Shown here: piece by piece, positions 24,787 to 50,814 of the stretch
Layout: each line of letters starts with the position of its first letter
How positions within the stretch are numbered: the stretch's first letter is position 1
Virus record (IMG/VR): IMGVR_UViG_3300037297_000216
DNA: 64,000 nt
Source: an uncultured virus (IMG/VR IMGVR_UViG_3300037297_000216)
Lineage: Duplodnaviria > Heunggongvirae > Uroviricota > Caudoviricetes > Crassvirales
Direction: 5' to 3' (one strand)
Translations under genes and position numbers: made by a program
The notes under the pieces: model-generated
Databases searched by the model: none
Told to the model about the DNA's origin: nothing
What the model saw: the letters and a program-made list of their open reading frames with translations, nothing else

Positions 24787-25182
24787 ATGGCAGAAATAAG
24801 TATACAAGAATTAGCTGAAACTTTAATGAACCTTACCACAAAACAACATATTCAGTTAAAGAAAGAACTTGAAGAAGTTCATGGTTTAGAGATGAATTTA
24901 CCTCAAACAACATCAATGCCAATCAAAGAAGAAGTAGTCAAAGAAGAACCAAAAAAAACTACTTTTAATGTAACATTGAAAAGTTCTGGTGAAAAACATT
25001 TAAGTGTAGTAAAAACCTGGAAACAATACAATGAGAATCAAAACATGAATTTAAAAGAAGCAAAAGAAATAATTGACAGTGCTCCAGTGATATTAAAAGA
25101 AGGTGTTTCTCAAATAGAAGCTGAAGAAATTAAAAAGCTACTTGAAGAGGTAAGTAATGGAGTTGAAATAATTATTGAATAA
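24787..25182 (+). CDS. rplL: Ribosomal protein bL12 (L7/L12), full length
   Basis: N-terminal dimerisation helices (LMNLT..LKKELEE.HG), hinge, CTD KTTFNVTL, LKEAKEIIDSAPVILKEGVS..EAEEIKKLLEE. Confidence 0.88.
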   Translation: MAEISIQELAETLMNLTTKQHIQLKKELEEVHGLEMNLPQTTSMPIKEEVVKEEPKKTTFNVTLKSSGEKHLSVVKTWKQYNENQNMNLKEAKEIIDSAPVILKEGVSQIEAEEIKKLLEEVSNGVEIIIE

Positions 25183-25187
25183 AGAAA

Positions 25188-25252
25188 TTAATCCTGTTGA
25201 AGTTTAAATATGAATTGTTGGGACCCGGGTTCGACTCCCGGCAGCTCCACTA
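25188..25252 (+). ncRNA. ssrA: tmRNA acceptor piece (tRNA-like 3' half) of a permuted two-piece gene
   Basis: GAC-ccggg-TTCGACT-cccgg T-arm, acceptor strand CAGCTCC, discriminator A then CTA; upstream strands pair with coding piece. Confidence 0.88.
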
Positions 25253-25515
25253 AAGCTGGGAACTATTGTTTAATAAATAGAGAATGATATTGATTGATGA
25301 AGTATATCTCCCAGCTTTAAAATATACCATTTATAAAGTAACAGTTAGGGGAATAAGTCGAAAATGAGCCAGTGCACTTACCAGTTAACAGAAATGTTAT
25401 TATAAGTAATACTATAAATTATAATACTATAAATTATAAAGGTAATCAAAAGGATGAGGCTTATTTCCAAACCTGTTAAAAATTAGTGTTTGTTAAATGA
25501 ATACTTTTAAAATAT

Positions 25516-25664
25516 GGGGCTGAATTGGTTTTGACTGCAAGAATTGTTTAGATGTAGGGATTAACAATCGAATAGCTGACAACGTTATTCAATTAAATAC
25601 TACTAAGTACCAAGTTAGACTTGTTGCATAGTGACCCTACTCCCCGGGAATATAGGGGAGTTTC
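25516..25664 (+). ncRNA. ssrA: tmRNA coding piece (5' end plus tag ORF ADNVIQLNTTKYQVRLVA* at 25575-25631)
   Basis: GGGGCTGA..GG..TTGAC 5' signature pairs with CAGCTCC including G3.U70; A-rich resume context; tag ends LVA; terminal hairpin actcccc/ggggagt. Confidence 0.88.
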
Positions 25665-25687
25665 TAATTACTTAAATATTTAATATT

Positions 25688-26632
25688 ATGGCTAAAAAAT
25701 ATTGTATATCAGTAGATAATTGTTTTCAGTGTCCTAATTCTGAAAAATACGATGAACATAGTGCTTATTTATTTAACGAAATGAAATTTGTATTTCCTAG
25801 TAAAATGGGACAATATTACTGTTGGGGACTAGGTAAATTTATCAGTGAAGATATTAACGAATACGAAGAAATTCATCCAGATTGTACATTAGATGATGAA
25901 TAAATAATTTATTATTATGAAAAAAAAGAAAAAGAAAACAAAAAATATTCCTCAATTAGATAATGTTATTAAAACATTTACTGAAGAATATAAACAGTCT
26001 TTAATACCTTCTGAAAAAACAATAACTAAAACTCCTATATATAAAATAATTCATGGAGAACTAAAAGAGGTAGGAATTAAAATAAAGAAAAAAGGTATTA
26101 CCAGACGAGAACAAAAACTCAAAAAAGTAATCAAAAAAGCTGCTAAAAAGATTGTTCTAAAAAATCAAAAGAAACGATAATTTATCAAAAAAAGTAATAA
26201 AATTGAAATTAAATGAAAAAAGCAGAATTAAAAAAATTAGCAACAGAAATGATAAAGGATTATGAAAATCTTATCAAAGAACTTAAATTTCAATACAAAC
26301 CTAATCAAATCATTTCATGGAAAGATATTGAAGATAAAAGTACATTATTTTCTTCTCGATGTAAAGTATGTGTAAAATTTTCGAATTCTTCATGTATATT
26401 TAATTATAACAAATCACGATGGACTGATTCTGGTCCTGCTAACTGTGCGAGACAATCTACTTATCCTGTTAAAAAAACAATAACTCATTTTCGTATAAGA
26501 AAAAATAAATGGCAAGACTTTAAATGTTTATTAGATAATCTTGCTCCCAAGTCATTTAAAAATTCAAATTTTGAAGACATTCAAAAACTGGCACATAAAA
26601 TATTTAATCCATTAGAATCATGTGTGGAGTAG
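25688..26632 (+). CDS. Three hypothetical proteins (25688..25903 Cys-rich; 25917..26180 basic; 26213..26632)
   Basis: ORF track. Confidence 0.5.
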
Positions 26633-27102
26633 TAAGAATAAATCAAATAAACTATAAACCAGGTAGCATGTTAAAGGTATTAACATCTAGTGGTAAAAAA
26701 GAAATGAAATGGGGCATTAGTAAAACACAAATAGTTACGAAAATAGGCAGAACTGAAGAAATTAACAAAATATTATATAATGCCAGAATAGAAACTGTTT
26801 TAGAAGGTAATTTCTGGAATAGTATGATAAAAAATAATTGTGTACTAAAAGTAGATGGTTTTTATGAAAAAAATCAATATTTTATACCTCATTTTCATCT
26901 TCATGATTTGTGGTTACCGGGGCTATATAATAATGAAAACTCATTTGTTTTACTTACTCAAAATGCAGGCCCTTTAGTAAGAAATTTTCATCATAGGCAA
27001 CCTATATTATTATTTAAAGATAATATAGATGAGTATATTCAAGAAGGAAAACTTCTTAAAGCTCTTTCTCATAATAAAAATCATTTAAAATTATCGGCAT
27101 GA
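26620..27102 (+). CDS. SRAP (YedK/HMCES-like) abasic-site processing protein
   Basis: N-terminal MCG, MKWG, YNARIETV, GFYE, FHHRQPILL. Confidence 0.82.
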   Translation: MCGVVRINQINYKPGSMLKVLTSSGKKEMKWGISKTQIVTKIGRTEEINKILYNARIETVLEGNFWNSMIKNNCVLKVDGFYEKNQYFIPHFHLHDLWLPGLYNNENSFVLLTQNAGPLVRNFHHRQPILLFKDNIDEYIQEGKLLKALSHNKNHLKLSA

Positions 27103-29632
27103 TTAAAATTAGCATGATACTTAAAATAAAAAAATTGTTGCAGATTTCGTTACTAAAAGTAATAAGGTTGATCCTCTTAAAGAGGATTGCCTTATTACCT
27201 ATTAACGATGAAACAAATGAAATTATTACTTTAATAAAAGTAAAGAAAATAAAAGATTTTATAGGTAAAAGATCATTAGTGATTACTGATTTATATTTAG
27301 ATGTTAAAAGTATAGAAGAATACAAACTAGAAGCAAAAATACTAAAATTATTTAGAACTTTACAAGCAGGGTATTCAAGGAAAGGTTATTCTTATATTCT
27401 TATTCCTGCAGAAAATATTAAAGTTATTAATAAAAAAGTTTTGCCTTTAATTAAAAATAACTTAATTATAACTATTTTATTAAGTTGTGATTATAAGCGT
27501 AATCACTTAATTAATTTTACTTTTGGAAATACTGCTTTAACACCAACAGTTTTAAAACAATTATATTATATTAAAAGTTTATGAAAAATTTTGGAAATAA
27601 AACTCATCAAACAATAAAAATAAGAACTTTAATAAAGTACTTATTTGGTACTTTTGGAGTTGCTAACTCTAGGGTAAAAAAAATTATAGGTAAGTCTAAA
27701 AAAGAATTATTTAAAGAATCAATAGTAAATAATAATCTTCAAGACATATATATAAAAAATCCTGACCTATAATAGTTTACAAAATATCTTCAAAAAACTA
27801 TTAGAATTTTTTAATAAAAAGAAAATAAAGCAAAAACAAATATTAACAAATTAAATAATAAAACAATGGAAAATACAAATTTGGATAAAACTAATTTTGG
27901 AGATAAACTCCAAATACTTGAATTATTACATCATATTACCTATTCAACCTCTTCTGCTTACACAGAAAAAACAAAAAACGAACTGACAGAAGCTGTTAAT
28001 ACCATAGCTCATGAAGTAGCTGTTGAGTTACCTGTATTTTTAGGAATAGCTTCAAATATTAATAAACCTAATAAAGAAAAAGAATCAAAAAAAGAAGAAG
28101 TTACAACATCTAAATCAACTACAAATTCTGTTGTAAATACTACTGAACAATCATCTACTACAGAAGACTTAACCAAGAAAGTTGAAGAAGAACCGGCTAC
28201 AACAGCTCCTGAGACTAATTTAAATCCTCCTTCTACGGATGATGTGGTTAATGAACTTGGAGGAGAAGAAAACTCAGATGATGCTGAAGAAATTAGTGAA
28301 GGAGAATTAATAACTGCTATTATCAACAATGAAGAAGCAGTTAAAAAGATTAAAGAAACTACTATTGATAAAAATGAAAAAGATATTCCTAATAATGTTA
28401 GGGAAAGTCTAAAAGACGCTCTTATCAAAAGTGGTGGAGAAATTTTTCAAGTATCTAATCCAAAAGATAAACGTGAAAGAAAAGCTAAACGTGCTGAAAT
28501 CAATGAAGCTTTAACTGAAGTATTTAAGATTTTAAAAGAAGAATCAAAAAGAGAGGAACTTTCAATTGATAATCCCGAAAGTCAGCCAACTCCAGAAATC
28601 ACTTCTTCCACAAAAAAGCCTGATTCTGATTCTTCAAAACCTACTGTAGAAAATACAAAAGTGGTAACTACAGAGGAATTGCAAAATAATTCTAATACAA
28701 ATGTAGAAGAAGTAGTTATTGCGGAAGAATTAACAGAAGCAGAAATAGATGCTTTTGTAGAAAAAATTAAAGCAACTAAAGATCCTCTCAAAGAAGTCAG
28801 ATTAGAAATGGAAAAAAGTTTACAAACTTTAGGAGGAAAACTTGATGAAGAAAAGTATAAAAAGTTTAAAAAAAGATTTAGTACTTTGATAATCAAAATG
28901 GCAGAAACAAATAAAAGTAATTACGGAACATTTTTAAATGGAGGAGCTGCTGAAAAAAATAGAGAAAATGTGGTAAAAAGTTTCCTTAAAAAGACAAAAC
29001 CTGCTGTAATTACAGAAGGAAGAGATGGTAAAATAGTTTTTTTATCATAAATTAACATTAAGATATTTCTGCTTGTTTTTATATATTGAAGTGTAAGACT
29101 AGGTATAAAAAATTGTCTAAAAACTATGCAAAGATGTTTAACCGATAATAATATTAGGTATTCAATCACATGGTATAAGGCTAAAAATATTACTGAGTCT
29201 TACACTTTACTTATAAAAATTTATTAAAAATTTAATTATATGAGTCCAGAAATAGAAAAAATAAGATCAAAACTAAAAAAGGCTTCTCTTATTCTTGCAA
29301 AAATGAAATTTTCAATAAGAGAATTAGAAAATACTTTAGTAGTAGCAGAAGATTTATCTATATTAATTAATACTGATGACTTAAGAAAACATCTTCAAGA
29401 AACACTTTTTGCTTTAAAAGAAAAAAGAATAAGAATTGAAAACTATGTAAATGACCAAGCCTTAGAATTAGTAAATCATATTTGTCCCTTATCATTAAAA
29501 GAATTAGAACATTTTAGTCATTTATCATCAAAAGAAATAAAATCTAATTCTATGATAATCAGTGATGTAGAAGGAAATCTTGTAATGATAGATTTAGAAG
29601 AAGGAACTGCAGAAATTATGAAAGATTTTTAG
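27099..29632 (+). CDS. Hypothetical proteins (27099..27584; 27581..27772; 27866..29050 acidic low-complexity; 29240..29632)
   Basis: ORF track; A-rich leaders. Confidence 0.55.
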
Positions 29633-30720
29633 TTATCTCAAATAAGAGATGATTCTTTCCAATGGCCTACTCTGTCTCAGTAGGGCGGACTCCAACAAAC
29701 CTGGGAGCTAAAGGGGTTTAGGACAGGTAGCAAAAAGACAATTAGAATCTTACTTTTTGATCATGGTTGAGGGAATGGTCCAACAGTACATGTAAAAGTC
29801 TTATTATGAGACATCGAAAAGAAAGAGTGAAGATATAGTGACTTCTCCACTTATCTTCTTTTATTATTGGTCATATTGCATTATAAAAGTAGGGGATTTG
29901 TCCCCTACTTTAACACTAATACTTCAGTAAGTTTTTGTGAAGACGATTCTAATTCACATTGACTATTACGGAATCCCTGTCAACATTAGTGGAATATATT
30001 TTTTATTTACTAAAGTGTTAAAACCTTATAGTAGTACTGTAACTACTATATAGAGCATTACCGGTTGTATAGTATAATATTACCGTAGTGAGTAAAGCCA
30101 TCACTTTGCTTAACAGAACTCTTTACTATCCTATCATGGGGATAGATATAGTAAAGTAAGTAAACAGGTAGGGTTAAAACAGACATTAGCCCTGACAATA
30201 ATAGTATACAACACTGCGAATGTCAAGCAAAATTTCTATAAGTTCTGTATATCCTAAATTTTCATATTAACAAAATTTAAGATATGGTTACTTGGAAATA
30301 TTTCATCGTTGGGCAATTATGCCTTATTCGTAACATTTCTTACGAACATAATAAATTTCATATTATTCCATTTGCAATAATATTATTCCTTTATATTTAT
30401 CTTAAGTATTTACGAATAATTTTTATTGTAATTATTCTTCCAATGTAGTATCGATCGTGGATACACAAATGAAGATAATTAATAAAAACTTAAAAAAGAA
30501 ATTTGGTATTAGAGTTTCATTAGAAAGGAATTTCGAATAAGTTATAAAGGAATTAAAGGTTACATGCTCTCGTATTGCAAGGACTTATCCTTTATGATTT
30601 TAAGATCATATATAACTTATGAACAATAAAGGTTATTACTAGGAAAATTTCAAAGCCAAAGAGATTAGAAAGGTAATAGTTCATAATTTAATTCCTTTAT
30701 ACTTTATTTTCATTAAAAAA
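29633..30720 (+). ncRNA. ORF-free structured non-coding island (candidate ncRNA or ncRNAs)
   Basis: About 1.1 kb without ORFs >=60 aa; many long stems, e.g. 30543-30557/30687-30701 perfect 15 bp; double pseudoknot at 29651-29749. Confidence 0.55.
29886..29911 (+). terminator. Terminator-like hairpin
   Basis: aaagtagggga tttg tcccctacttt. Confidence 0.6.
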
Positions 30721-35371: not shown

Positions 35372-35576
35372 AAATGTTTTATATAATAAGATAAAACTAG
35401 GAATAATAAAATGGATATATATTCAATATTGGAAAAATAAGTTAGCTGCTTATTTGGTTTCCTGCCAAAGGTTCCTTGTCGCTGTTGAATATTGCTTATT
35501 ATATAAATCATATATATACATATTTCCGGTAACGTATCCTATAAGGCACATAGACGAAGGAATGTTGTACATATGA

Positions 35577-36170
35577 GATACTAATTCCGAAGATCGTGAA
35601 AGCCCTCGTACATATACGTTATTAATATTTATTTTAACAACAAATATTTCAAATAATATTCAAAATTAAAAGAAAATATTAGTACAAAGGTTGAAGTTCG
35701 AGTAATGAAGTCGAGGCTAGGAGGCAATAGTACGTGTTCAATCCTTTGAAGTGGGCTAAGAGAGTCCTCTCCAAGACAACAATTAAAATGTTGATCCGTT
35801 TTCGACAAAGTTCAGTAGCTGAGAAATGCTCTAGCAATGATCTGTTAAATCATAGTACGTAGGTTTTGAGTCCTACCTGAAAGATAATGATAAATGGAGA
35901 CCTTAGGGTAAGTAGGTGAAATTCCTACCAAGGAGGGAGTTTTATATGGTATACGCAAATCCATGATCCCTAGTAGATTTAAGGAAAACTTTTGTCATGA
36001 AAAATAAAAGTCTAAAAGTCCTTTTATCGCGAGGTATACTACATATAATTAATCTATTGTACAAAAAGCAGAAAGTTTGAAGTTAATAAATAACAAACTG
36101 CAAAGGTAGCCAAAAGAGCCCGATTGAAACTCGGGAAAAAGTAATTAACAGCTTAATATTCGATATTTTT
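35577..36170 (+). ncRNA. Structured non-coding island with several T-loop-like hairpins
   Basis: No ORF; GC-richer than flanks; stems caaaggttgaa/ttcaatcctttg, gtagg-tgaaatt-cctac, cccga-ttgaaac-tcggg. Confidence 0.5.
35809..35884 (+). tRNA. Degenerate tRNA-Asn(GTT)-like element
   Basis: Anticodon arm atgat-ctGTTaa-atcat, TAGCT..AGC D-arm, T-arm gtagg/cctac with 8-nt loop ttttgagt, acceptor stem only 5 bp, no CCA. Confidence 0.55.
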
Positions 36171-36184
36171 TTAAAATAAACAAA

Positions 36185-36805
36185 ATGAATTCAAAAATTT
36201 ACAAACAAATTTGCAAAGTTTCTCTTTATTTGTTTCCAGAATATTCTTTTGCTAAATTAAATAAAAGAAAAAAAAAGATAATTTTAAAAGAAAAAGGAAT
36301 ATTTGGAAAAAGAAGATCGTTTAAAATAGAAGATTTAGTTTTTTATTATATACCAATGCAGATTTCATTAAATAAATGGCAATCAGAAGATTGGTATAAT
36401 CTCTTTATAAAGGAATGGGTAGAAGGAGAATTATACAAAACAGATAATTATATACCAGAATTAATAGAATTTTTAAAGAATGAGGCTAGAAAAATAGAAG
36501 TTCTAAATACAAGTTCCTTAATTTGCAGGTATAGAAAATTTGTTGACGGTGTCGGAGTAGTTGAAGAGGGTAAGAATAAAAAATCTTCATTATTAGAAAC
36601 AATAACAGAAGATATTTTAAATACTAATAAAATATTTTGGGGAGAAGGGTTGTTAAAATTTGCAACTGTTAAAACAGCTACGTGGGCATTAGTGTTGTAT
36701 TTAAATATAAAACCATTGATAGTAAAGGTAGATTTTTCAAAATTATTGTCAATTCATCCCCTTATTACAGAGATGAAATCTTCACTTTTTTACAACAATT
36801 TTTGA
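36185..36805 (+). CDS. Hypothetical protein
   Basis: 206 aa ORF. Confidence 0.55.
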   Translation: MNSKIYKQICKVSLYLFPEYSFAKLNKRKKKIILKEKGIFGKRRSFKIEDLVFYYIPMQISLNKWQSEDWYNLFIKEWVEGELYKTDNYIPELIEFLKNEARKIEVLNTSSLICRYRKFVDGVGVVEEGKNKKSSLLETITEDILNTNKIFWGEGLLKFATVKTATWALVLYLNIKPLIVKVDFSKLLSIHPLITEMKSSLFYNNF

Positions 36806-37629: not shown

Positions 37630-38079
37630 ATGTTACTTTTAAATAAAATTTTTAAAAAGAAAAATAAAATTTTGCTTAAAGAAGCTTTGAAAATAAAAGA
37701 AGATCTTTTTCATCAAATAGGAAAACTTGAAAAAAGTTTAGCTTATTATAATAAAACACAAAAAGAAAAAGAAAGAGAAGAAGCCTTTTCTCAATTAGAA
37801 CAAATAGCAAAAAAATATTCAAAAATATGTAAAATAATATTAAAAGCTAACTTAAAAAGTGGGCAAAATGAATATATAAAACTTCGTGAACTGTTAAATA
37901 GGAGAAAATATATATTATTAGAAATGCCAAGTGGATGTTGGATTCCTAATCCATATTATTCTCCTTTATCAAAAAAACTAATACCTGTACAAAATGTTAT
38001 ACTTAAAACAAAAGAACAGTTAAAAGAAGTTTCAAAGAAACAAGAGGAAATTAACAATAAATATTATGTAAAAATATGA
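37630..38079 (+). CDS. Hypothetical coiled-coil protein
   Basis: 149 aa ORF, ATGA overlap with RNR. Confidence 0.55.
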   Translation: MLLLNKIFKKKNKILLKEALKIKEDLFHQIGKLEKSLAYYNKTQKEKEREEAFSQLEQIAKKYSKICKIILKANLKSGQNEYIKLRELLNRRKYILLEMPSGCWIPNPYYSPLSKKLIPVQNVILKTKEQLKEVSKKQEEINNKYYVKI

Positions 38080-39030
38080 TAGAAAATAAGTTAGGTGAAG
38101 GGGTAGAAAAAACTACCCCTACTTTCTTCACAAGGGAAGAAGTTTATGAACAAACTTTAAAATATTTTGATGATGATAAACTGTTAACTGATATTTGGGG
38201 GGATAAGTATTGTCTTAAAGACTTACAAGGTAATTATTTAGAATTAACTCCAGATGATATGCATAGAAGACTAACCAAAGAATTTGTTAGAATTGAACAG
38301 AAATATAAAAACTCATTAAATGAACAAGAAATTTATGATTTGTTGGTCAATTTCGGTTATATTATTCCTGGAGGTAGTATTTTATATGGAGCGGGAAATA
38401 ACTACTCCTTTAGTTCGCTTGGCAACTGCTTTGTCATCGGGAACAATAGTGACTCTTATGGCGGAATATGTCAAACTGACCAAGAACAAACCCAACTAAT
38501 GAAGCGTCGGGCAGGTGTGGGTCACGATATATCCCATTTAAGGCCATTTTTAGCCCCTGTAACAAACGCAGCAGGCACTTCTAGTGGTATAGTACCATTT
38601 ATGGAAAGATACTCTAATACGACACGTGAAGTAGCTCAGGATAACCGTAGGGGAGCACTAATGTTAACACTTGATATTAATCATCCACAAATATATGATT
38701 TCATAGAAGCAAAAACTGATTTAACAAAGATAACAGGTGCTAATATATCAGTTAAGATTACTGATGAATTTATGAAAGCTGTTGAAAATGATGAAGATTA
38801 TATTTTATATTTTGACAGAAATGGAAATTTTAAAGAAAGAGATATAAATCATAAACTTGAACTATATAAAGATACTTACTTTAAAATTAAAGCTAAACCT
38901 TTATGGAATAAATTAATTCATCAAGCTTGGAAAACAGCGGAACCAGGTGTATTATTTCGGGATAAAATTAAATCTGAATCCATACCTAGTTGTTATGGAG
39001 AAGAATGGGAAGAAACGAGTACTAATCCGT
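38076..39030 (+). CDS. nrdJ: Class II (AdoCbl-dependent) ribonucleotide reductase, exon 1
   Basis: PGGS, SLGNCFV, RRAGVG, RRGALM, ITGANISV, AEPG, ends STNP+T. Confidence 0.9.
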
Positions 39031-39042
39031 AAACTAAACATT

Positions 39043-39210
39043 ATGATAACATATGAAGAACTTTCTTTTAAAGAAAAAACAGAATTTAGAAAAAAATTAA
39101 TGTCAGAAGAAGGATTAAAACAATTTGCAAGAAATATAAAAGAATATAAAGAAGGTTGGAGATGTGTGAAATGTACATGGCCATCTCATATGTGTACTTG
39201 TAATGAATAA
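39043..39210 (+). CDS. Intron-borne small ORF 1 (55 aa, CxxC..HxCxC)
   Basis: In P1 loop; A-rich leader. Confidence 0.6.
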   Translation: MITYEELSFKEKTEFRKKLMSEEGLKQFARNIKEYKEGWRCVKCTWPSHMCTCNE

Positions 39211-39267
39211 AATCCATGCGGATGAAAAATCTCTTCTAATTGTGTTTTAAACTATAAATAATCAAAA

Positions 39268-39381
39268 ATGTCAAACGAAAAATTTACCTTATTAATTGCA
39301 GCAATATCTTTTATAGGAGGTTTATTCTTTGGATATCATTTTCCTAAGAATGAATCAGAAAACGATAACTTGGAAGGCTAA
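39268..39381 (+). CDS. Intron-borne small ORF 2 (37 aa, single TM-like)
   Basis: MSNEKFTLLIAAISFIGGLFFGYHFPKNESENDNLEG. Confidence 0.55.
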   Translation: MSNEKFTLLIAAISFIGGLFFGYHFPKNESENDNLEG

Positions 39382-39423
39382 TTACAAGCCGACAGGGCGC
39401 AAGCAAACTTAAAATTTAAAAAT

Positions 39424-39600
39424 ATGATAATAAAAAATATTGAAGATTTATTAGAGCACTTATTAATATGGGAAGAACAAGGTTTCTTGATTAAAGAAGC
39501 TAAAGAAGTTGTGCAGCGTGAGAGGGTAAACGAAGAGACTACTATAGAGGATAAAGATCAATATAATTATTATCCAGAAGATAATTATGATCTTTGGTAG
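39424..39600 (+). CDS. Intron-borne small ORF 3 (58 aa, acidic), overlaps ribozyme core
   Basis: MIIKNIEDLLEHLLIWEEQGFLIKEAKEVVQRERVNEETTIEDKDQYNYYPEDNYDLW. Confidence 0.5.
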   Translation: MIIKNIEDLLEHLLIWEEQGFLIKEAKEVVQRERVNEETTIEDKDQYNYYPEDNYDLW

Positions 39601-39641
39601 TAGATGCGGTGCTCCAAATTAATAAATGAAATGTAATTGAA

Positions 39642-39818
39642 ATGATAAAAGTAAAACAAAAATTCGGAGATAATTCTCTTAGTGAAGAATATTTTATTAA
39701 AGAAGAAGAATTAGAATTAATTAGAATTGGAAATTTGTATTGGGCAAATAGATTATGGTTATACAAAAATAATAAACCTAACCATGTAGCTCATATAAAT
39801 ACATTAATTTTTGTTTAA
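39642..39818 (+). CDS. Intron-borne small ORF 4 (58 aa)
   Basis: Enclosed by the 10-bp P9 stem; stop codon abuts the 3' strand. Confidence 0.6.
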   Translation: MIKVKQKFGDNSLSEEYFIKEEELELIRIGNLYWANRLWLYKNNKPNHVAHINTLIFV

Positions 39819-39832
39819 CATTTATTAACAAG

Positions 39833-41526
39833 GTGGTGAAATTCCACTCTGTCCTTACGATAGTTGTAGGTTAATGAGTGTGAATTTGTACTCGTTTGTA
39901 GAAAACCCATTTACAGACAAAGCTTTTTTTAACTATGATAAATTTAAAGACGTAGTGTATAAAGCACAACGTTTAATGGATGATGTTGTAGATTTAGAAG
40001 AAGAGAAAATTAATAAAATACTTAATAAAATTGAAAACGATCCAGAACCTGAAGAAATTAAGAAGATTGAGAAAGACTTATGGACTAAAATCAAAGGAAA
40101 ATTACTCTCCGGTAGACGTACTGGTCTTTCTGCTATTGGTCTTGCTGATTGTTTGGCTGCTCTCAATGTTACCTATGGATCTGAAGATTCTATAAAATTA
40201 GTAGAAAAAATATACAAACAATTTGCTATATCTGCTTATAAAAGTAGTATAGATATGGCTAAAGAAAGAGGAGCTTTTCCTATTCATAATATTGAACTAG
40301 AAAAAGAAAATCCTTTTTTGAAAAGATTTTGGAAAGAAGTAGGACAAAATGAAATATCAAATGCCAAAACAGATATAAAAATTGGATTTGGATTTTCTAA
40401 AGAAGATAAAGAACAAACTTATCTTTGGAAATATAAAGAATATGGACGTAGAAATATTGCTTTATTAACTATACCGCCATCAGGCACAATAAGTCAAATG
40501 GCAAGTATATCTTCAGGTATAGAGCCTGTTTATCAATTATTACACAAAAGACGATATAAAATATTAGGAGATCAAGAATATGACTATGTTGATAAAACTG
40601 GTGATAAATGGCGTGAATATACTGTATTACATCCTAAATTTAAAGAATGGTTTGATATATGGGGAAAACCAAAAGATGTGGTCAATCCTACTATTGAAGA
40701 ACTTAATAAACTAAATCTATGGAATACTTTTAGACAATATGGTAATATTACAAATCTTGAAACTTTCATAAAAATATCTCCTTATTATAATTCTACAGCA
40801 TATGAAATAGATCCTATACAAAGAGTTAAATTACAAGCTACTATTCAGAAATGGATTGATCACAGCATAAGCTCAACAATTAACTTACCTAAATCAGCTA
40901 CAGAAGAAGAAGTGTCTAATCTTTATATAGAAGCATGGAAACAAGGTTGTAAAGGTATAACCATCTATCGTGATGGTTGTAGAGAAGGAATATTAACATC
41001 AATTAATCAAAAAGATACAGAATTCAAACAACATGATGCTCCTAAAAGACCTAAATCTTTGCCTTGTAATATTCATTCTACTACAATTAAAGGAGAAGGT
41101 TTTTACGTACTAATAGGCTTATATGAAAATAAACCTTATGAAGTGTTTGTTATTAGAAAAGATATTCATTATTTTACTGAAAAAGAAGGTATTATTTCAA
41201 AATTAAATAAAAAACAGTATGATATTCAACAAAAAGATTCTGAAGTAGGCTGGATAATGACAGAAGCTTTATCAGATAATGAAGCTACTATAACTAGATT
41301 AGTATCAACTGCTTTAAGACATGGTACTGATATAAAATTTATAACGGAACAGCTTAATAAAACTCAAGGAGATCTTACTAATTTTGGTAAAGCAATAGCA
41401 AGAGTATTATCAAAATATATTAAAAAAGAAACAGGATTAGAATGTCCAGAATGTAAACAAAATACATTAATAAGAGAATCAGGTTGTATAAAATGTACGA
41501 ATTGTGGTTATTCTAAATGCAATTAA
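39833..41526 (+). CDS. nrdJ: Class II RNR, exon 2 (spliced product 882 aa) with C-terminal TSCPD-like domain and Zn ribbon
   Basis: GEIPLCPYDSCRL, RRTGL, TIPPSGT, SSGIEP, QKWIDHSISSTINL, GCKGITIYRDG, APKRP, CPEC..C..CGYSKC. Confidence 0.92.
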
Positions 41527-43655: not shown

Positions 43656-44846
43656 ATGTGGGAAAGAATAGTATATAAATTAGATGATTGGGCCATTAAA
43701 AAATATAAAGGTTCTTCACCAGTAGGTGTAGAACAATATATATATTTAGCATTACCTACTTTTATTGATGATACCTGGCAACAAAAAAAAGAAATTATAA
43801 ATAAATGCCGGATAATGGAAATCGAAAGTGATCCTATTTCAAAAACTCATGAAATTTATACAATAAATGGTCATTATGGTTATAAATTAGATAGTATGAT
43901 GACTATTGATTTTCCAGACAAAAATATAACAAATTATATAATACCAAGACCTATGACAGATCAAAAAGAAATACATATACTTGATGTTGTACGAAAAGTA
44001 AGAAATCATACTAAAGCTGGATACCAAGCTTGTAAAGAAGCAATAGAACAAGCTATTAACGAAGGAATAAAATTAGAAAAAGAAATAATAGAAAGAGCTT
44101 TTTCTATATTAGCTTCTAAAAAACAAATAACAAGTAGTACCACTATATCAGATTTCAAAGAAGGAAGAATAGCAGTGGATACTAATTTTGATAAAACAGC
44201 AGGTGTTATCATAGCCTTAGGTTGTAAATCTGAAGCTGCTACTAACACAGAAATATTTATAAAATTATTAGATAATATAATAATAAAAGCTGTAAATAAT
44301 CTTCCAGAAACTACTATTGATTTATTATCTTCAAATTATTGCAATGAAGATCATACGATTGCTGAAGAAATATCTAATGTATCAGAGATATTAAAAGAAG
44401 AGTTAAAATTACTGTATTACAGTATGATGAAAGTACCAACTGATACACAAGTTATTAGCTGTTATGAGCACTATGTATCTAATGGATGTAAGTTAGGAAC
44501 TTTAGGTATGTTTGAAAAATCAAAAGAATCCGAAGATCTATTTATAAACATTTTAATGCAAATTGCAGCTTATAATCCTTTATGTAAGTCAGAAGATGAG
44601 TTGTTACCAGAGATTATTTTAAATGAAAAGAATATAATTTTTGAAGAATTAACAGAGGATCCAAAACTTAAAAATAAACCAATAGAAGTAAAAGAAAAGA
44701 TAACTGAAAACAAATTAAAAGCATTTTTTGAAGAAGCTTTATTATATAATCAAAAATTAAGTACACAACCTAACTTTACTGTAAAAGAATATATGGATAA
44801 ATATAAAATTATCTTATTCGATTTTGAAAGATATAAAATAGGTTAA
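43656..44846 (+). CDS. tsf: Elongation factor Ts-like protein with about 100 aa N-terminal extension
   Basis: VRKVRNHTKAGYQACKEA (UBA-like N-domain), EGRIAV, MQIAAYNP, KPIEVKEKITENKL..FFEE..L..Q, TVKEY, FERYKIG. Confidence 0.85.
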   Translation: MWERIVYKLDDWAIKKYKGSSPVGVEQYIYLALPTFIDDTWQQKKEIINKCRIMEIESDPISKTHEIYTINGHYGYKLDSMMTIDFPDKNITNYIIPRPMTDQKEIHILDVVRKVRNHTKAGYQACKEAIEQAINEGIKLEKEIIERAFSILASKKQITSSTTISDFKEGRIAVDTNFDKTAGVIIALGCKSEAATNTEIFIKLLDNIIIKAVNNLPETTIDLLSSNYCNEDHTIAEEISNVSEILKEELKLLYYSMMKVPTDTQVISCYEHYVSNGCKLGTLGMFEKSKESEDLFINILMQIAAYNPLCKSEDELLPEIILNEKNIIFEELTEDPKLKNKPIEVKEKITENKLKAFFEEALLYNQKLSTQPNFTVKEYMDKYKIILFDFERYKIG

Positions 44847-45475: not shown

Positions 45476-46145
45476 AATATCACCAATAAAACTGTTATTT
45501 GATTTACTATTTTGGAAGATAACAAAATATCATAATTTAAGGGAAAGTCACTCTAATTTTTGTGAAATTTGTAATTGTTTTTTTAAACTAAGAGACAAAA
45601 CTATTACAACTGTAAGTAAATATAAATTACATAGTAAACCTTACACAAAATTTAGTAAAAAATATCAACACTTAGGATATACTCAGTTAGGGGTATTTGA
45701 TTCTTGGAAACCAGTAATAAAAGAAACAATTATAAAATTAGAAAAATATATTTGGCCAAGATGGTTACCTTTATTCGTAAAAAGATGGATACATTACTGG
45801 GCTACTGAAAATTCCGTAGTTAGAGTAAAAAATAGATTTTGGTACAATATTGAAAATAAATTAACTAAAGGTTTTTCTATTTTTGATATAAAAGATAAGT
45901 GGGGAGGATTATGACTGTATATGTCTTATTATGATAACAAAATAGAAGAGATAATTGAAGAAGCTGTTAAAAAGTGTGAAAAAATTTGTGAAAAATGTGG
46001 TAGTAATAATGATGTTCAACTAACTGATACTCCTTGGATTCATAATTACTGTAAAGAGTGTAGAGGAAATTCTAATGCAAAAGTTATTGATAAAAAAAAT
46101 AATAACAGATTTATATCTATAAATATAAAAGTACCTAAGACATAA
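45456..46145 (+). pseudogene. Phage protein split by a single in-frame TGA (45912-45914)
   Basis: Two track ORFs are in frame: IKDKWGGL*LYMSYY...CEKICEKCG..YCKEC. Confidence 0.5.
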
Positions 46146-46149
46146 GAAC

Positions 46150-46876
46150 ATGAGACCAAAAGAAAGAATACCAGTCTTTTTTAAACTAATAGATTGGAAA
46201 AAACTTAAAGAAAGATGGAATATAGATTTAGCTCCAATATTAAAATTTGATAACATTACAGAAATTAACAGATATTGGGAAGAAAATCCAGATCAACGAT
46301 TTGGACAGGTATTAATTAATCTAGGATTTGCTCCAGATGAATTTAAAGTTTGGAATGATGAAGAAACAAATATACTTTTAAGTCAAGGAATAGCTCCTGA
46401 AGAAGTTTTATATTGGACTTCAATATTTAATAAAGATGAAACATTACGAAATAAACCAGTAACTAAGTTACTTAAGGATTTAGAAACAAATCATATAAAA
46501 GCAATTTTAGAAACACAGACACATTTATCAGATTTATATATAAAAACTTTTAACAAAATACTAAAAAATAGAAATGAAACAATATTATAAATTTTTCGTA
46601 GAAGAAAAAACAATACCTGGTATGGAACCAAAAAGAATAATGGGTCAGTTTTATCAAGAAGACAAAATAAAAACAGAGCCTGTTATTGCTTTATTATCTG
46701 AAATATCTTTAGAGAATTTATGTAACTTTATGAATAAAACTATGGTAGTTAGACCATTTAATTCAAAAGATATTACTAAGGTAAGTAAAAAGATGGAAAT
46801 TTCTAGAAATGAAGCTAAGGAACTATTGGAAAGATATAAATATGTATCGAGAATACCTGAACATATTAAAAAATAA
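46150..46876 (+). CDS. Two hypothetical proteins (46150..46590 with PDQRFGQ motif; 46574..46876)
   Basis: ORF track. Confidence 0.55.
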
Positions 46877-46881
46877 GTAAA

Positions 46882-48867
46882 ATGATTTACTTCGTTAGTA
46901 GAAATATAAATAGTAATGTATTAAAAAATAATAACATTACGTTAACAGGTGTCGAAAAAGTTATAGAGGATTTACAAAATGAAACTGAAATTTGTCTAGA
47001 TACTGAAACAACCGGTTACAGTCCTATCTATAACGATATAATTTTATTACAGTTTGGAACTTTAAAAGGTAATCAGTACGTAATAGATACTAGAGATTTT
47101 GAAGTAAATCATTTTAAACGTTTACTTGAAAGTGAAACTAAAACTTTCATAGGTCATAATATAAAGTTCGATTATAATATGTTAAAAAAACATGGTATAG
47201 TCCTAAGAAATGTATATGATACTATGATTGTTGATAAGGTGATATTTAATGGAGCTTATGGACAAGACTTTATTCGTAAAAATAAAAGATTTTCATTAGC
47301 TGGTGTGTACAAACATTATTTCAACAAATATATAGAAAAAAAAATAAGAGAAGATTTTGTCAGATGGAGAAATAAACCATTTACATACGATCAAATAACA
47401 TATGCTGCTTTAGATGCTTTATATCCTTTTCATATAAAAGAAAAACAACTAGAATTAGTAAAAAAGTATTTGTTAGAAGAGACTGTAAAGCTTGAAAATA
47501 AAGTAGTTTTAGCAATAGGAGATATTGAATATAATGGAATGAGACTTGATCCTGTCAAATGGAGAAATGTTGTAAATAAGTATAAAATCAGGGCAGAACA
47601 AAGTGAAACAAAATTAGACGAAATGCTTTTATTGCAGCCAGGAACTCAAAAGTATAAAAAAATAGCAACCCAATTGACATTATTTGATGAACCAGAAGAT
47701 AAAAGAAAATCAATAATAAACTGGAATAGTGATCAACAAGTATATGAAGTATTATCAAATATATTCAAAATATATCCTAAAGATAAACATGGTAAACCTT
47801 CTTCTGGTGCTGATGCTATTGAAATGTTATCCACATCCCACCCATTTACAAACTTATTATTAAAATATCGAGAGGAAACAAAAGTTATAACTTCGTTTGG
47901 TGAAAAATTTTTAGGAAAATTAAACCCAGATAGCAGAATTAGAACGTCTTTTAATCAAATAATGAACACAGGTAGAGTAAGTAGTAGCAATCCTAATATG
48001 CAACAAATCAAAAGATACAATAAAGAAGACCCTGATTCCAAATACTTTAGAGAAGCTTTTTGTGTAAAAGAAGATAAATGTTTATCTACTGCTGACTATT
48101 CTCAACAAGAAGCTCGTATAATGGCTGATATGGCTGATGACAAAGATTATATAAAATTTTTCAATGAAGATGGAGGAGACAGTCATAGTTTTGTAGCTAC
48201 TAAGTTATTTTCTGCAAAGTTTAAAAAAGAATTTAAAGTATCTAAAACAGAAAATGAAGAATATAGATATAAAGGAAAAATACTTAATTTTAGTATTTCT
48301 TTTGGTATACAAGCAAATACATTATCTAAATGCCTTAAAGTATCTATAGAGGAAGCTCAGGAGCTCATAGATGCGTTTTATGAAGGTTTTCCTACTCTAA
48401 AGATATTTTTTGAAAAGTCTCATGAGGAAGCTCTTTTTAAGGGTTATATAAGGACTAATAATATAACAAATAGAATCAGGTGGTTTCCCGAATGGCGCAA
48501 ATATTTAGAATTAAAAGATAATCGAAGCAGAGATTGGTCTGGTAACAAAGAACTTTCTATTATTGAAGGAATAATAAAACGAAGAGCTCAAAATACTAAA
48601 ATTCAAGGTACAGCTGGAGATATGACAAAATTAGCTTTAGTATATATAAGAACAAAATTGATAGAAAATAATATATTACCTTTATATGAAGCTTCAGTAA
48701 AATTGGTTAATGTCATACATGATGAAACAGTATTAGAAAGTATCCCAGAATTAGTTAATAAATGGTCTACAATTCAAAGAGAATGTATGGAAAAAGCGGG
48801 AGAAGCTTTCTGTAAAAAAGTAAAAGTAACAGCAGATTTTAGTATAGGTCAACATTGGGAACATTAA
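46882..48867 (+). CDS. polA: Family A DNA polymerase with 3'-5' exonuclease
   Basis: DTETTG, GHNIKFD, YAALD, TGRVSSSNPNMQQI, ADYSQQEAR, RYKGKILNF, IQGTAGD, IHDE. Confidence 0.95.
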   Translation: MIYFVSRNINSNVLKNNNITLTGVEKVIEDLQNETEICLDTETTGYSPIYNDIILLQFGTLKGNQYVIDTRDFEVNHFKRLLESETKTFIGHNIKFDYNMLKKHGIVLRNVYDTMIVDKVIFNGAYGQDFIRKNKRFSLAGVYKHYFNKYIEKKIREDFVRWRNKPFTYDQITYAALDALYPFHIKEKQLELVKKYLLEETVKLENKVVLAIGDIEYNGMRLDPVKWRNVVNKYKIRAEQSETKLDEMLLLQPGTQKYKKIATQLTLFDEPEDKRKSIINWNSDQQVYEVLSNIFKIYPKDKHGKPSSGADAIEMLSTSHPFTNLLLKYREETKVITSFGEKFLGKLNPDSRIRTSFNQIMNTGRVSSSNPNMQQIKRYNKEDPDSKYFREAFCVKEDKCLSTADYSQQEARIMADMADDKDYIKFFNEDGGDSHSFVATKLFSAKFKKEFKVSKTENEEYRYKGKILNFSISFGIQANTLSKCLKVSIEEAQELIDAFYEGFPTLKIFFEKSHEEALFKGYIRTNNITNRIRWFPEWRKYLELKDNRSRDWSGNKELSIIEGIIKRRAQNTKIQGTAGDMTKLALVYIRTKLIENNILPLYEASVKLVNVIHDETVLESIPELVNKWSTIQRECMEKAGEAFCKKVKVTADFSIGQHWEH

Positions 48868-48878
48868 AATATACAAAC

Positions 48879-49637
48879 ATGAAAACAAGAATAGCACCTA
48901 GTCCTACTGGATATTTTCATTTAGGAACATTAAGAACAGCTCTATTAAATTATTTGTTAGCAAAAAGTAATAATGGAACTTTTTTATTACGAATAGACGA
49001 CACTGATCAACAAAGAAGTAAAAAAGAATATATTGATTTTATTTACCAGGAAATGTCAAAATTTGGTTTATCTTATGATGAAACATTCAAACAATCAGAT
49101 AGAATAGATCGATATAAAGAAGTAGCAGAAAAAATTGGTTATAAAGATAAAGAAAATGATTGGATATGTTTTGACATGGGATTTAAAATGATACTAATTA
49201 GAGAAAACGGATATCCTACTTATAATTTTGCTACTGTTGTTGATGATTATGATTATAATGTAACTCATATTATACGAGGAGTTGATCATATTCAAAATAT
49301 TGATCGTCAAAAAATATTGTGGGATGAAATAGTTTCTGTATATGGAAATAAAAACTTTCCAGAAATAAAACATGTAGGCTTACTATTCGAAGGAAATAAA
49401 AAATTATCAAAAAGAGATAATAATGGAACTACTTCAAACTATAATAATTATAAAAAATCAGCTTTATTAAATTGGTTATTTAAATTTGGTTGGTCACATC
49501 CTGATCCAAATTTTGATAGTAAATATAAAATATTATATTTAAAAGACATGATTAACTTATTTAATGAAGGAAATCTTTCTACTTCTAATTGTAAGATAGA
49601 CAAGAATAAATTAGAGTGGTTAAATAAAAGACATTAA
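48879..49637 (+). CDS. Minimal glutamyl-tRNA synthetase-like protein (catalytic domain only)
   Basis: RIAPSPTG.FHLG, LRIDDTD, QSDR, YNFATVVDD, THIIRGVDH, KLSKR; no anticodon-binding domain. Confidence 0.85.
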   Translation: MKTRIAPSPTGYFHLGTLRTALLNYLLAKSNNGTFLLRIDDTDQQRSKKEYIDFIYQEMSKFGLSYDETFKQSDRIDRYKEVAEKIGYKDKENDWICFDMGFKMILIRENGYPTYNFATVVDDYDYNVTHIIRGVDHIQNIDRQKILWDEIVSVYGNKNFPEIKHVGLLFEGNKKLSKRDNNGTTSNYNNYKKSALLNWLFKFGWSHPDPNFDSKYKILYLKDMINLFNEGNLSTSNCKIDKNKLEWLNKRH

Positions 49638-49644
49638 GAGAACA

Positions 49645-50814
49645 ATGATGAAAACAAAATTTAAAGAAATTCCAAAACATATAGATAAAAAAGAAGGGTT
49701 ATGTTGTTTCAATAAAAATTTAGATAAATTGGACAAAGTATCTCTATTAAAAAATAATTTTGTGTTAGAAGAAAAGGATGATTATATAAATATATACTTT
49801 ACTAAAAAAAGTAATTTTAATATATTTAAAGATTATAAGAACTTTTACTATATGGATGGATTTAGCCCAAATTTGAACAAAGAACTCCATATAGGACATT
49901 TTTCTAATTTAATAATTGCAAAAGCTCTACAAAAATTAGGCATCGTAAAAAAGACTATTTCAATGCTTGGGGATACTTTAGAAGGAAATATCTCAAATAA
50001 AGAAGGTTTTAGATTATTCAAAAATATAATAAAAACTTTTAACTATAAAGTAAGCAGAATATTTTTTGCATCAAAACTGAAATATCAAGGAAAACTTGAA
50101 GAAGGTAAAGGTAAATATGAAGGTACTAAAATATTTGATACTAATGAAGAATTAATTGTCGCAATAAAAAAAGACGGTACAACTTCATATACTTATCATG
50201 ATATTGCTTTGGCAAAAAAACTAGTTAAGGACACATTGTATTTGACTGGATATGAACAAAAAGAACACTTTAATAAAATAAAAAAAGTATTTAAAAATGT
50301 ACATCATTTTCCTTTAGGGTTGGTAAAAATATCTAATTCAAAAATGTCAACGAGAGAAGGAAATATAATATTAATAAAAGATATTCTAGATGAACTTAAT
50401 AAAACTTTTAAAAATAATAAGTTAAGTTACAATGTTTTTGCAGGATATATTTTAAAGTCTTCTCCAAATACAGATAAAAACATAAATATAAAAAATATTT
50501 ATAATTATAAAAATTCCCCTGGTTTGTACTTAAGTTATACAACAGCAAGGTTATTAAGTGCGGGATGTAAAATACTTCCATTTAAGATAACAAATAATAA
50601 ATTATTAGAATATTATTTTATACTATCTAAAAATGAACTTAATCCTTCATTATTATTCAATAAATTAATAGACTGTTGTAAAACTTTAAATACATTATAT
50701 GAAACAATAAAAATAAAAGGTAATTTAAAAAATAAAATAAATATGTCCATCAAGCTAACAGAATTAAATTATTATATGAAAAAAATAGGTTTATACTTAA
50801 TTAAAAAGGTATAA
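49645..50814 (+). CDS. Shortened arginyl-tRNA synthetase-like protein
   Basis: FSPNLNKELHIGH, KDGTTSYTYHDIA, YLTGYEQKEHF, KMSTREGN, PGLYLSYTTAR. Confidence 0.8.
   Translation: MMKTKFKEIPKHIDKKEGLCCFNKNLDKLDKVSLLKNNFVLEEKDDYINIYFTKKSNFNIFKDYKNFYYMDGFSPNLNKELHIGHFSNLIIAKALQKLGIVKKTISMLGDTLEGNISNKEGFRLFKNIIKTFNYKVSRIFFASKLKYQGKLEEGKGKYEGTKIFDTNEELIVAIKKDGTTSYTYHDIALAKKLVKDTLYLTGYEQKEHFNKIKKVFKNVHHFPLGLVKISNSKMSTREGNIILIKDILDELNKTFKNNKLSYNVFAGYILKSSPNTDKNINIKNIYNYKNSPGLYLSYTTARLLSAGCKILPFKITNNKLLEYYFILSKNELNPSLLFNKLIDCCKTLNTLYETIKIKGNLKNKINMSIKLTELNYYMKKIGLYLIKKV

Follow-up and report, generated by a model that had tools for sequence, protein, structure and literature searches.

The window analyzed here, a 64,000-nucleotide (nt) stretch of DNA from an uncultured crAss-like virus (IMG/VR record IMGVR_UViG_3300037297_000216), carries on one strand and within 26 kb a set of components related to translation: a ribosomal stalk protein bL12, a circularly permuted transfer-messenger RNA (tmRNA), a homolog of the elongation factor EF-Ts, and two shortened aminoacyl-tRNA synthetases (aaRS), which we refer to as mini-GluRS and mini-ArgRS (Table 1). 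A preliminary description of this DNA had counted six components, the sixth being a tRNA-like RNA, and had seen in them a coordinated system centered on EF-Tu. Five of the six are real, while the tRNA-like RNA is weak, and we think it probable, at roughly 60%, that this phage took up translation helpers of the jumbo-phage style in at least 3 separate acquisitions, and that these are independent helpers and not one machine.

The components do occur together in the sense that they share a strand and a 26-kb interval, but they fall into three separate places rather than one block, one with bL12 and the tmRNA, one with only the EF-Ts-like gene, and one with the two aaRS genes. Between these places lie ThyX, ribonucleotide reductase, PolA, and other genes of replication and nucleotide metabolism. 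Each component had also been described as atypical, which is borne out by the permuted tmRNA, the shortened synthetases, and the altered motif of the EF-Ts-like protein, but not by bL12, which matches its model over the full length and is not truncated.

Table 1. Features of the window, with positions in the whole 64,000-nt stretch
Feature	Position	Strand	Basis and remarks
bL12, full-length, divergent (N-terminal domain, charged hinge, C-terminal domain)	24787-25182	+	PF00542, TIGR00855, BLASTP
tmRNA gene, circularly permuted, two-piece	25190-25665	+	Sequence reading and family comparison; starts 7 nt after the bL12 stop
tmRNA acceptor piece	25190-25250	+	5' strands of helix P2; T-arm CCGGG/UUCGACU/CCCGG; 3' acceptor strand CAGCUCC; discriminator A, C
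tmRNA intervening segment, 265 nt	25251-25515	+	Between the tmRNA pieces; long hairpin at its start
tmRNA coding piece	25516-25665	+	5' acceptor strand GGGGCUG; D-loop analogue; 3' strands of P2; tag frame; terminator-like hairpin
tRNA-like cloverleaf, degenerate, anticodon GUU (doubtful)	35809-35884	+	RF00005 with relaxed filters; within non-coding 35576-36185
EF-Ts homolog: novel N-terminal domain (residues 1-110), UBA-like domain with 8-residue insertion, full core	43656-44846	+	PF00889, TIGR00116, alignment
mini-GluRS, class I catalytic core, 260 residues	48855-49637	+	PF00749, NCBIfam, PDB alignment
mini-ArgRS, compact ArgRS fold, 389 residues	49645-50814	+	PF00750, AlphaFold2 and Foldseek; 8 nt from the mini-GluRS gene
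Head and tail module	138-19662	-	PHROG and capsid matches
Replication and nucleotide-metabolism block	~22 kb to 61 kb	+	ThyX, split ribonucleotide reductase, PolA, DnaB, primase, Sak4-like recombinase, ligase, UDG

Distribution of the components among relatives

A metagenome contig (L030) is syntenic with the window, with identities of 87.5% for Pyr_excise, 60.6% for a protein of 534 amino acids (aa), 40.5% for the EF-Ts-like protein, 80.6% for a metallophosphatase, 82.0% for PolA, 71% for the gene at 50837-51430, and 80% for DnaB. Both aaRS genes are absent from it: PolA ends at position 6874 of the contig, and the next gene, the homolog of the one at 50837-51430, starts at 6884. The best GenBank matches of the aaRS genes (66.5% identity for mini-GluRS, 43.3% for mini-ArgRS) belong to LR745206, where the two genes are 368 kb apart. 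Among the GenBank matches of the four proteins there is no named crAss-like record, a few of the hits being unannotated, unclassified fecal "Bacteriophage sp." scaffolds. Four huge GenBank phages had neither an EF_TS domain (0/4) nor a permuted tmRNA (0/4), and a standard tmRNA scored above threshold in 1 of the 4.

The mini-ArgRS is found on 45 IMG/VR contigs, or 44 records once a 16-kb fragment of the same phage, 100% identical and so uninformative as a relative (G001), is set aside. A crAss capsid and an EF_TS domain are each present in 0 of these 44, and a bL12 domain exceeds its cut-off in 8 (12 at E<=0.001). Some GluRS-type gene occurs in 17/44, and an ortholog of the mini-GluRS itself in 5/44 (62-66% identical, open reading frames (ORFs) of 274-289 aa); in all 5 it lies 12-43 kb from the mini-ArgRS gene and is never adjacent to it. 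All 12 mini-ArgRS records that are at least 90% complete measure 191-676 kb, and the shorter contigs (3-79% complete) are fragments of larger genomes, which upholds the earlier statement that sets of this kind are mainly a property of jumbo phages, as does the portion of the huge-phage survey that we draw on here (PMC7162821). Five records (G012, G019, G041, G048, and G051; 61-340 kb, 5-79% complete by CheckV) have a short ORF with a partial bL12 C-terminal match (model positions ~5-40, 20-29 bits) at ~0.1-2 kb from a GluRS-type gene, a recurrent pairing.

Among the 5 records that carry the tmRNA type of the window, bL12, EF_TS, a GluRS-type gene, and the mini-ArgRS are each found in 0/5, and only one of these records, of 69 kb, is complete. 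A search of the 44 mini-ArgRS records with a tmRNA 3'-end pattern was unspecific, the 6 loci checked comprising 1 standard tmRNA, 4 tRNA arrays, and 1 with nothing. Co-occurrence across relatives was the check set beforehand for a coordinated EF-Tu-centered system, and it went against that claim: the components are distributed patchily and independently of one another.

A minimal two-piece tmRNA

Our tmRNA call rests on direct reading of the sequence together with comparison across a family of related genes. The acceptor piece is nearly identical to those of permuted tmRNAs called by ARAGORN in 3 IMG/VR contigs (L012, L004, and L013), and its 3' CCA is incompletely encoded, the DNA reading CUA. 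By analogy with described two-piece tmRNAs, as covered in part by two earlier studies (PMC9004378, PMC11915505), the 265-nt intervening segment is presumably removed by tRNA-end processing; spacers in the family measure 51, 75, 216, and 265 nt. The coding piece begins at 25516 with GGGGCUGAAUUGGUUUUGAC, of which the first 7 bases pair with CAGCUCC of the acceptor piece and form a G3.U pair. A tRNA-like domain with a 7 bp acceptor stem, the G3.U pair, and a T-arm was found by reading, by cmscan, and in two-strand folds. Downstream, a tag frame running from 25575 (or 25578) to a TAG stop at 25629-25631 encodes (A)DNVIQLNTTKYQVRLVA, and it is followed by a terminator-like hairpin at 25639-25661 and a U-rich tail; the terminator rule of our promoter/terminator scan missed this hairpin. 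The default Rfam search of the whole window reported no tmRNA at the gathering score, and a relaxed search of 651 nt gave, in the 500 nt gap behind bL12, 48.2 bits to RF00023 (cut-off 47) as a 5'-truncated match on the 3' piece only.

Relatives of this tmRNA were collected by pattern scans of IMG/VR and comprise L012, a complete 69 kb phage, L016, a group of three (L015, L017, and L018), and the pair L004 and L013; some of them are called permuted by ARAGORN. Because spacer length varies, a whole-gene MAFFT alignment misplaces the coding pieces of L012 and L004, and we therefore worked from piece-wise alignments and folds. Two-strand folds of five lineages (the window, L012, L016, L017/L018, and L004/L013) give the same structure from different sequences, with a 7 bp acceptor stem formed between the pieces, a T-arm, and a P2 helix of three segments. 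The piece-wise alignments of these five lineages, a small sample, contain 3 compensatory pairs: C41-G55 is replaced by G-C in L016 and G42-C54 by C-G in L017/L018, both in the T-stem, and U31-A24 in P2c is replaced by C-G in L004. The tag frame has its stop between nt 94 and 116 of the coding piece in 6/6 family members and closes with a hydrophobic degron (LVA, MVA, LAA, AAA, AAA, or MAA), and a hairpin follows the tag in 5 of the 6 (the window, L012, L016, L017, and L018). The tag that ARAGORN assigns in L017 (195-749), AGFLHLLIY, conflicts with the family's common frame (...YFMPQVKAAA), and automatic tag calls for such minimal phage tmRNAs can be in error.

The 5' strand of this tmRNA, GGGGCTGAHTTGGTTTTGAC, recurs in 68 genome contigs (L083-L150), mostly metagenome-assembled genomes (MAGs) of Bacteroidales and Flavobacteriales. 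Sixty of these motif loci were examined: 45 are standard one-piece tmRNAs with tags such as GENNYALAA, 1 is permuted like that of L012, and 14 have no ARAGORN call. The strand is a Bacteroidota tmRNA signature, and in the phage RNA a tRNA domain of Bacteroidota type is therefore combined with permuted gene order and with a tag that is unrelated. For several of the 14 uncalled loci the MAG bears the label Opitutales, Zixiibacteriota, Bacillota, Omnitrophota, or archaeon; these may be mis-binned phage contigs. Six high-GC viral contigs in IMG/VR (L006, L007, L008, L009, L010, and L014) contain a tmRNA-like tRNA domain of ~85 nt alone (GGGGCUG ... CAGCUCCAC) without a tag region, none of which is called by ARAGORN; a phage tmRNA form without a coding sequence is mentioned in the tmRNA database paper (PMC11915505). 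The same paper describes, in its main text, permuted bacterial tmRNAs for Alpha- and Betaproteobacteria and Cyanobacteria, and that main text does not mention permuted genes of Bacteroidota type. Two-piece forms account for 53 of 133 unique phage tmRNAs in the relevant part of another survey, 50 of the 53 being marine or aquatic (PMC9004378).

The second RNA, the tRNA-like element, is doubtful as a component. It reaches 33.7 bits against RF00005 (cut-off 29) with relaxed filters only, and ARAGORN neither calls it nor finds any tRNA gene in the window. Its acceptor stem has 5 bp, with 2 mismatches at the top, and its T-loop has 8 nt, where a tRNA would have 7 bp and 7 nt. A cloverleaf is its minimum-energy fold (-16 kcal/mol), but with a z score of -1.13 this is no better than shuffled sequence, and blastn found no match among 50,697 phage records.

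bL12

The C-terminal domain of bL12 matches PF00542 over residues 60-128 (E 2.4e-15, 57.1 bits against a cut-off of 25.9), and residues 1-128 span positions 1-124 of the 125 in the NCBIfam L12 model TIGR00855, where the score of 65.6 bits falls short of the equivalog cut-off (84.4). BLASTP aligns residues 5-128 with cellular-type bL12 at 36% identity. The protein is therefore full-length and divergent. Its best GenBank phage match, at 37.7% identity, is among "uncultured phage" genomes of 634-735 kb, and in the 735 kb phage bL12 is placed upstream of 11 tRNA genes. A match in MT836236 was set aside as probable contamination by a bacterial rplKAJL-rpoB operon, a judgment made from ORF sizes only. 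The IMG/VR related-locus search with bL12 returned no relatives.

Since the tmRNA gene begins 7 nt past the bL12 stop codon, the two are probably co-transcribed. This adjacency is not kept in the other phages of the tmRNA family, which have no bL12 (5 records).

An EF-Ts homolog without its exchange wedge

The EF-Ts-like protein matches PF00889 over profile positions 1-203 of 204 (E 8e-26, 91.3 bits against 27), and its residues 110-396 match TIGR00116 at 85.3 bits, under the equivalog cut-off of 104. In EF-Ts, the Asp-Phe wedge of the TDF(V) motif displaces Mg2+ and expels GDP from EF-Tu. Alignment shows SEA in place of TDF in the window protein. Among 121 retrieved EF-Ts-type sequences, 119 have TDF, and it is missing only from the window protein and from that of L030 (P0002); a third member with the N-terminal extension, P0243, retains it. 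The MQIAA motif is present in 121/121, and 100 positions are invariant across the three family members.

The protein probably still binds host EF-Tu, and with the wedge lost it is more likely to modulate EF-Tu or serve as an adaptor than to exchange nucleotides efficiently. The N-terminal extension is rare. A search of 1.84 billion representative sequences found 5 proteins, one of them a doubtful Hcp-repeat match (P0242), whose likeness over 45 residues we judged probably spurious. A model of the extension (predicted local distance difference test (pLDDT) 85.3) has no Foldseek match at E<=0.001, and with a best VIA Z of 3.0 no structural neighbor was obtained.

The gene evolves much faster than its neighbors, since its 40.5% identity to its counterpart at 1985-3184 of L030 compares with 60-87% for the flanking genes, and either an arms race or relaxed constraint could lie behind this. 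Related-locus searches of IMG/VR with the EF-Ts-like protein, with a two-sequence EF-Ts alignment, and with the neighboring SRAP gene found no relatives.

Compact glutamyl- and arginyl-tRNA synthetases

The mini-GluRS is a clear class I core (PF00749, E 9e-53, 179.6 bits) in which FHLG and KLSKR can be read in place of the HIGH and KMSKS motifs. It scores 227.5 bits against gltX_bact (TIGR00464, cut-off 289.95) and 130.3 bits against GluQRS (TIGR03838, cut-off 276.7), and assignment to GluQRS was rejected because this score is the lower of the two. Aligned with the structure of a 475 aa GluRS, residues 8-95 correspond to chain positions 10-98 and residues 111-258 to positions 177-316, so that the anticodon-binding domain is missing entirely and the insertion that follows the first Rossmann half is short by ~65-80 residues. 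The short form is a family trait: the 120 listed members have 243-284 aa (median 273 aa) and are 58-96% identical, and K[LMI]SKR is present in 117 of the 120 GluRS-type proteins listed. In a complete 369 kb phage (L082, G031:279887-282909), genes for tRNA-Glu(ttc), tRNA-Gln(ctg), and tRNA-Ala are followed immediately downstream by an ortholog of the mini-GluRS, an adjacency that suggests charging of phage tRNAs by the enzyme of that jumbo phage.

The mini-ArgRS is more remote in sequence, with 40.5 bits against PF00750 (E 2e-10, cut-off 23.3), 63 bits against argS (TIGR00456, cut-off 261.65), no Pfam DALR match, and no match at E<=0.01 among PDB sequences. Its AlphaFold2 model, built from 30 homologs, has a pLDDT of 90.8, and the top 12 Foldseek matches of this model are all ArgRS (best E 1.6e-15, TM 0.63-0.72 over the query). 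Within the HIGH motif H81, G83, and H84 are invariant in the 30 sequences, as are K232 and M233 of the KMS motif, S234 being nearly so. Also seen in the model are a small beta domain at the N terminus and a four-helix bundle at the C terminus, which may represent the N-terminal additional domain and the DALR anticodon-binding domain in reduced form. The family numbers 307 proteins, those listed having a median length of 394 aa and identities of 41-63%, with H.GH in 120 of the 120 listed ArgRS-type proteins.

Given how tightly both families are conserved, the mini-synthetases appear to be functional designs and not accidents. Wherever a genome with either family is near-complete, it measures at least 190 kb. 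Both enzymes retain their catalytic motifs but little of the apparatus for recognizing tRNA, and they probably supplement the charging of Glu-tRNA and Arg-tRNA with relaxed tRNA recognition.

The phage and its genome

The assignment of this virus to the crAss-like phages is secure. Its capsid is 58-62% identical to those of cr118_1, cr52_1, and related crAss-like phages of the human gut, with 149 matching GenBank phage records; matches to PHROG families have E values of 1e-131 to 1e-139 for the major head protein, portal, and terminase; and the crAss tail ring protein domain PF25710 is present in the window. The database clusters of its proteins lie on a contig of 97,831 bp, and a genome of ~98 kb has the usual size for the group; ~34 kb of it lie beyond the window. 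The public runs that contain its DNA are labelled as wetland, marine-sediment, and rhizosphere metagenomes, and 3 further wetland studies carry 20-46% of the sampled words. The phage thus looks environmental and not gut-derived, despite the human-gut origin of the nearest GenBank capsids.

The large genes of the window are intact under table 11 and ARAGORN finds no suppressor tRNA in it; on these grounds a stop-codon "code change module" made of a suppressor tRNA and an aaRS, as described in a preprint, was rejected. A sigma-70 promoter scan found 10 sites where 9.0 +/- 2.9 are expected, in a scan that does not cover Bacteroidota promoters.

Several other features were seen along the way. The head module includes a ferritin-like gene (8116-8670, PF00210, E 5.5e-29), and a GIY-YIG/NUMOD homing endonuclease ends the replication block at 60405-61064. 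The ribonucleotide reductase gene (38076-41526) is split within the TNP|CGE motif of its active site: exon 1 closes with ...STNP at 39032, while (C)GEIPLCPYDSC..., which continues it in frame, stands just upstream of 39874; the 0.8 kb insert is probably an intron, and none of the Rfam intron families matches it at E<=1. ORFs of 80 aa or more are missing from two long stretches: one of 610 nt at 35576-36185, with a G+C content of 32% against 28% for the whole window, which contains the tRNA-like element, and one of 2.4 kb at 19662-22106, which separates the divergent modules.

Independent helpers or one system

On the reading of separate acquisition, the components would act as independent helpers of phage translation. 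The results above show the gene identities, the RNA architecture, and the distribution across relatives, and from here on processing, charging, binding, and every physiological effect are inferred. Host tRNA-processing enzymes would cleave the tmRNA precursor to leave two RNAs that stay joined through helix P2 and the acceptor stem, one the acceptor piece (~61 nt) and the other the coding piece (~150 nt), after which the host CCA-adding enzyme would finish the 3' end and host AlaRS would charge the molecule by way of the G3.U pair. Host SmpB and EF-Tu could then bring it to ribosomes stalled on broken mRNAs, where the tag (A)DNVIQLNTTKYQVRLVA would mark the stalled peptides for proteolysis, freeing ribosomes and amino acids for phage proteins. 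Phage bL12 would exchange into the ribosomal stalk, the EF-Ts-like protein would bind host EF-Tu as a modulator or adaptor, and the two mini-synthetases would top up the charging of Glu-tRNA and Arg-tRNA.

A number of points weigh against this reading of independent, working helpers. Completeness is below 90% for 4 of the 5 tmRNA-family records and for 32 of the 44 mini-ArgRS records, so that absence from them is weak evidence, and independent distribution in distant phages does not strictly preclude cooperation within the lineage of the window. As for the tmRNA, ARAGORN called none in the whole window, the permuted model RF04321 reached 30.0 bits in a relaxed cmscan against a gathering score of 47, and no pseudoknots were identified, only ~12 nt lying between P2 and the tag frame. 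No SmpB was found among the 80 window ORFs scanned, with ~34 kb of the genome outside this view. The rapid divergence of the EF-Ts-like gene could signal relaxed constraint. Finally, no RNA run was found among the public sequencing runs that contain this sequence, all of which are DNA.

Host defences attack EF-Tu and tRNAs, and one alternative is that the components serve as spares or decoys against a host translation shutdown, whether by attack on EF-Tu, by cleavage or depletion of tRNAs, or by ribosome stalling, with the wedge-less EF-Ts-like protein shielding or sequestering EF-Tu while the mini-synthetases and the tmRNA sustain charging and rescue. The loss of the wedge from a protein that has kept both its MQIAA core motif and its UBA-like domain would fit such a role, as would the rare, lineage-specific N-terminal domain and the divergence of the gene beyond that of its neighbors, as expected in an arms race. 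That divergence also fits relaxed selection, however, and no defence or anti-defence family was found beside these genes, although no such family was tested for. We consider counter-defence unlikely, while giving it some weight.

The system originally proposed would redirect or rescue translation around EF-Tu as a shared partner, with phage bL12 to recruit this factor, the EF-Ts-like protein to recycle or capture it, the tmRNA as its cargo, and the mini-synthetases to feed it. It draws on the placement of all components on a single strand, inside a 26-kb part of the early/middle block, and on the similar "interception" network put forward in the huge-phage work, as far as the relevant part of that study describes it (PMC7162821). 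[quoted passage not shown] Against such a system stand the syntenic relative without the aaRS pair, the lack of EF_TS in the mini-ArgRS records and the 4 huge phages, the tmRNA-family phages without any of the four proteins, and the interspersed ThyX, ribonucleotide reductase, PolA, and other replication genes. An EF-Ts-like protein that has lost its exchange wedge is unlikely to speed the cycle, and because almost every elongation component touches EF-Tu, a link to EF-Tu is generic to elongation and unspecific as a common denominator. A coordinated system is distinctly unlikely on this balance, and the only plausible functional unit among the components is the pair of bL12 and tmRNA, whose adjacency is the single link that has some backing from outside this analysis.

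A narrower idea, speculative and rather improbable in our estimate, concerns the window phage, L030, and P0243. Here the N-extended EF-Ts-like protein would have ceased to be an exchange factor and become an adaptor that captures EF-Tu and acts with bL12 and the tmRNA, its novel N-terminal domain docking host EF-Tu onto a phage process. The result would be a genuine EF-Tu-centered system, restricted to this lineage, that channels ribosome rescue to the phage. It would follow that the permuted tmRNA is an independent two-piece origin, in phages, from a one-piece Bacteroidota tmRNA.

That the components are decaying passengers, picked up by accident from the host or from large phages during co-infection and now losing function, would agree with the defective tRNA-like element, the lost wedge and fast divergence of the EF-Ts-like gene, the shortened aaRS genes as a sign of decay, and the scores of all four proteins below NCBIfam equivalog cut-offs, but it is very improbable in view of the intact ORFs, the family-wide lengths and the conserved motifs and sequences of the mini-synthetases, the tmRNA helices maintained by compensatory changes, and the 100 invariant positions of the EF-Ts-like family.

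Separate acquisition of independent helpers is the reading that we continue to prefer. This genome shows that translation helpers regarded as "jumbo-phage" genes can enter a genome of ~98 kb, and the co-location of translation genes in one phage is no evidence for a coordinated system. A minimal two-piece tmRNA that escapes standard annotation tools implies that phage tmRNAs may be under-counted. The EF-Ts-like protein offers a natural EF-Ts without its exchange wedge, together with a gained domain that has no structural neighbor, and the two very compact, highly conserved class I cores offer a case in which tRNA specificity could reveal how little of an aaRS suffices.

Comparison with known systems

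Few uncultured phages have been studied as much as the crAss-like phages, which to our knowledge are not known for carrying translation machinery. A search of full-text literature gave no report of a tmRNA, EF-Ts, ribosomal protein L7, or tRNA synthetase in crAss-like or Crassvirales phages.

Among huge phages EF-Ts, rpL7/L12, tmRNA, and aaRS all occur as gene types, although, in the words of the survey, "no huge phage encodes all" (Al-Shayeb 2020, PMC7162821, consulted in part). The window resembles them in its gene types, and the best GenBank phage matches of mini-GluRS, mini-ArgRS, and bL12 are in "uncultured phage" records of 634-735 kb. It differs in its carrier, a ~98 kb crAss-like phage, whereas none of the 44 mini-ArgRS records has a crAss capsid; and the 4 huge GenBank phages compared here lack EF_TS, with only one having a tmRNA, of standard form.

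The bL12 resembles virus-encoded bL12 as described in the part of PMC6375957 available to us, being a phage copy of an exchangeable stalk protein with ~30-40% identity to cellular bL12. Most phage cases there are C-terminal domains inside larger proteins, whereas that of the window is free-standing and full-length, with a tmRNA gene adjoining.

Compared with bacterial EF-Ts (PF00889, TIGR00116), the EF-Ts-like protein shares the UBA-like N-domain, the whole core, and MQIAA, but has an extra N-terminal domain of 110 aa, an insertion of 8 aa in its UBA-like domain, a replaced TDF, and a sub-equivalog score. The mini-synthetases share with GluQRS (YadB), bacterial GluRS, and ArgRS a class I catalytic core that bears motifs of the HIGH and KMSKS type. 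The mini-GluRS lacks an anticodon-binding domain, as GluQRS does, but is nearer to GluRS by score and is also without the insertion after the first Rossmann half; the mini-ArgRS is ~190 aa shorter than solved ArgRS (389 aa against 573-606 aa).

Known two-piece tmRNAs, such as that of the OM43 phage Melnitz, have the same order of acceptor piece, spacer, and coding piece, a tRNA-like domain formed between the pieces, the G3.U pair, and a hydrophobic tag end, as described in parts of PMC9004378 and PMC11915505. The RNA of the window differs from them in its Bacteroidota-type tRNA domain, its minimal form without recognizable pseudoknots, its incompletely encoded CCA, and its escape from ARAGORN and from the Rfam cut-off. 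Phage bL12 (PMC6375957), translation gene sets (PMC7162821), and two-piece tmRNAs (PMC9004378) are thus already published, in the portions of these papers that bear on them, and what is new here is an auxiliary translation set in a crAss-like phage, its noteworthy variants being an N-extended EF-Ts without the wedge and a minimal two-piece tmRNA of Bacteroidota type.

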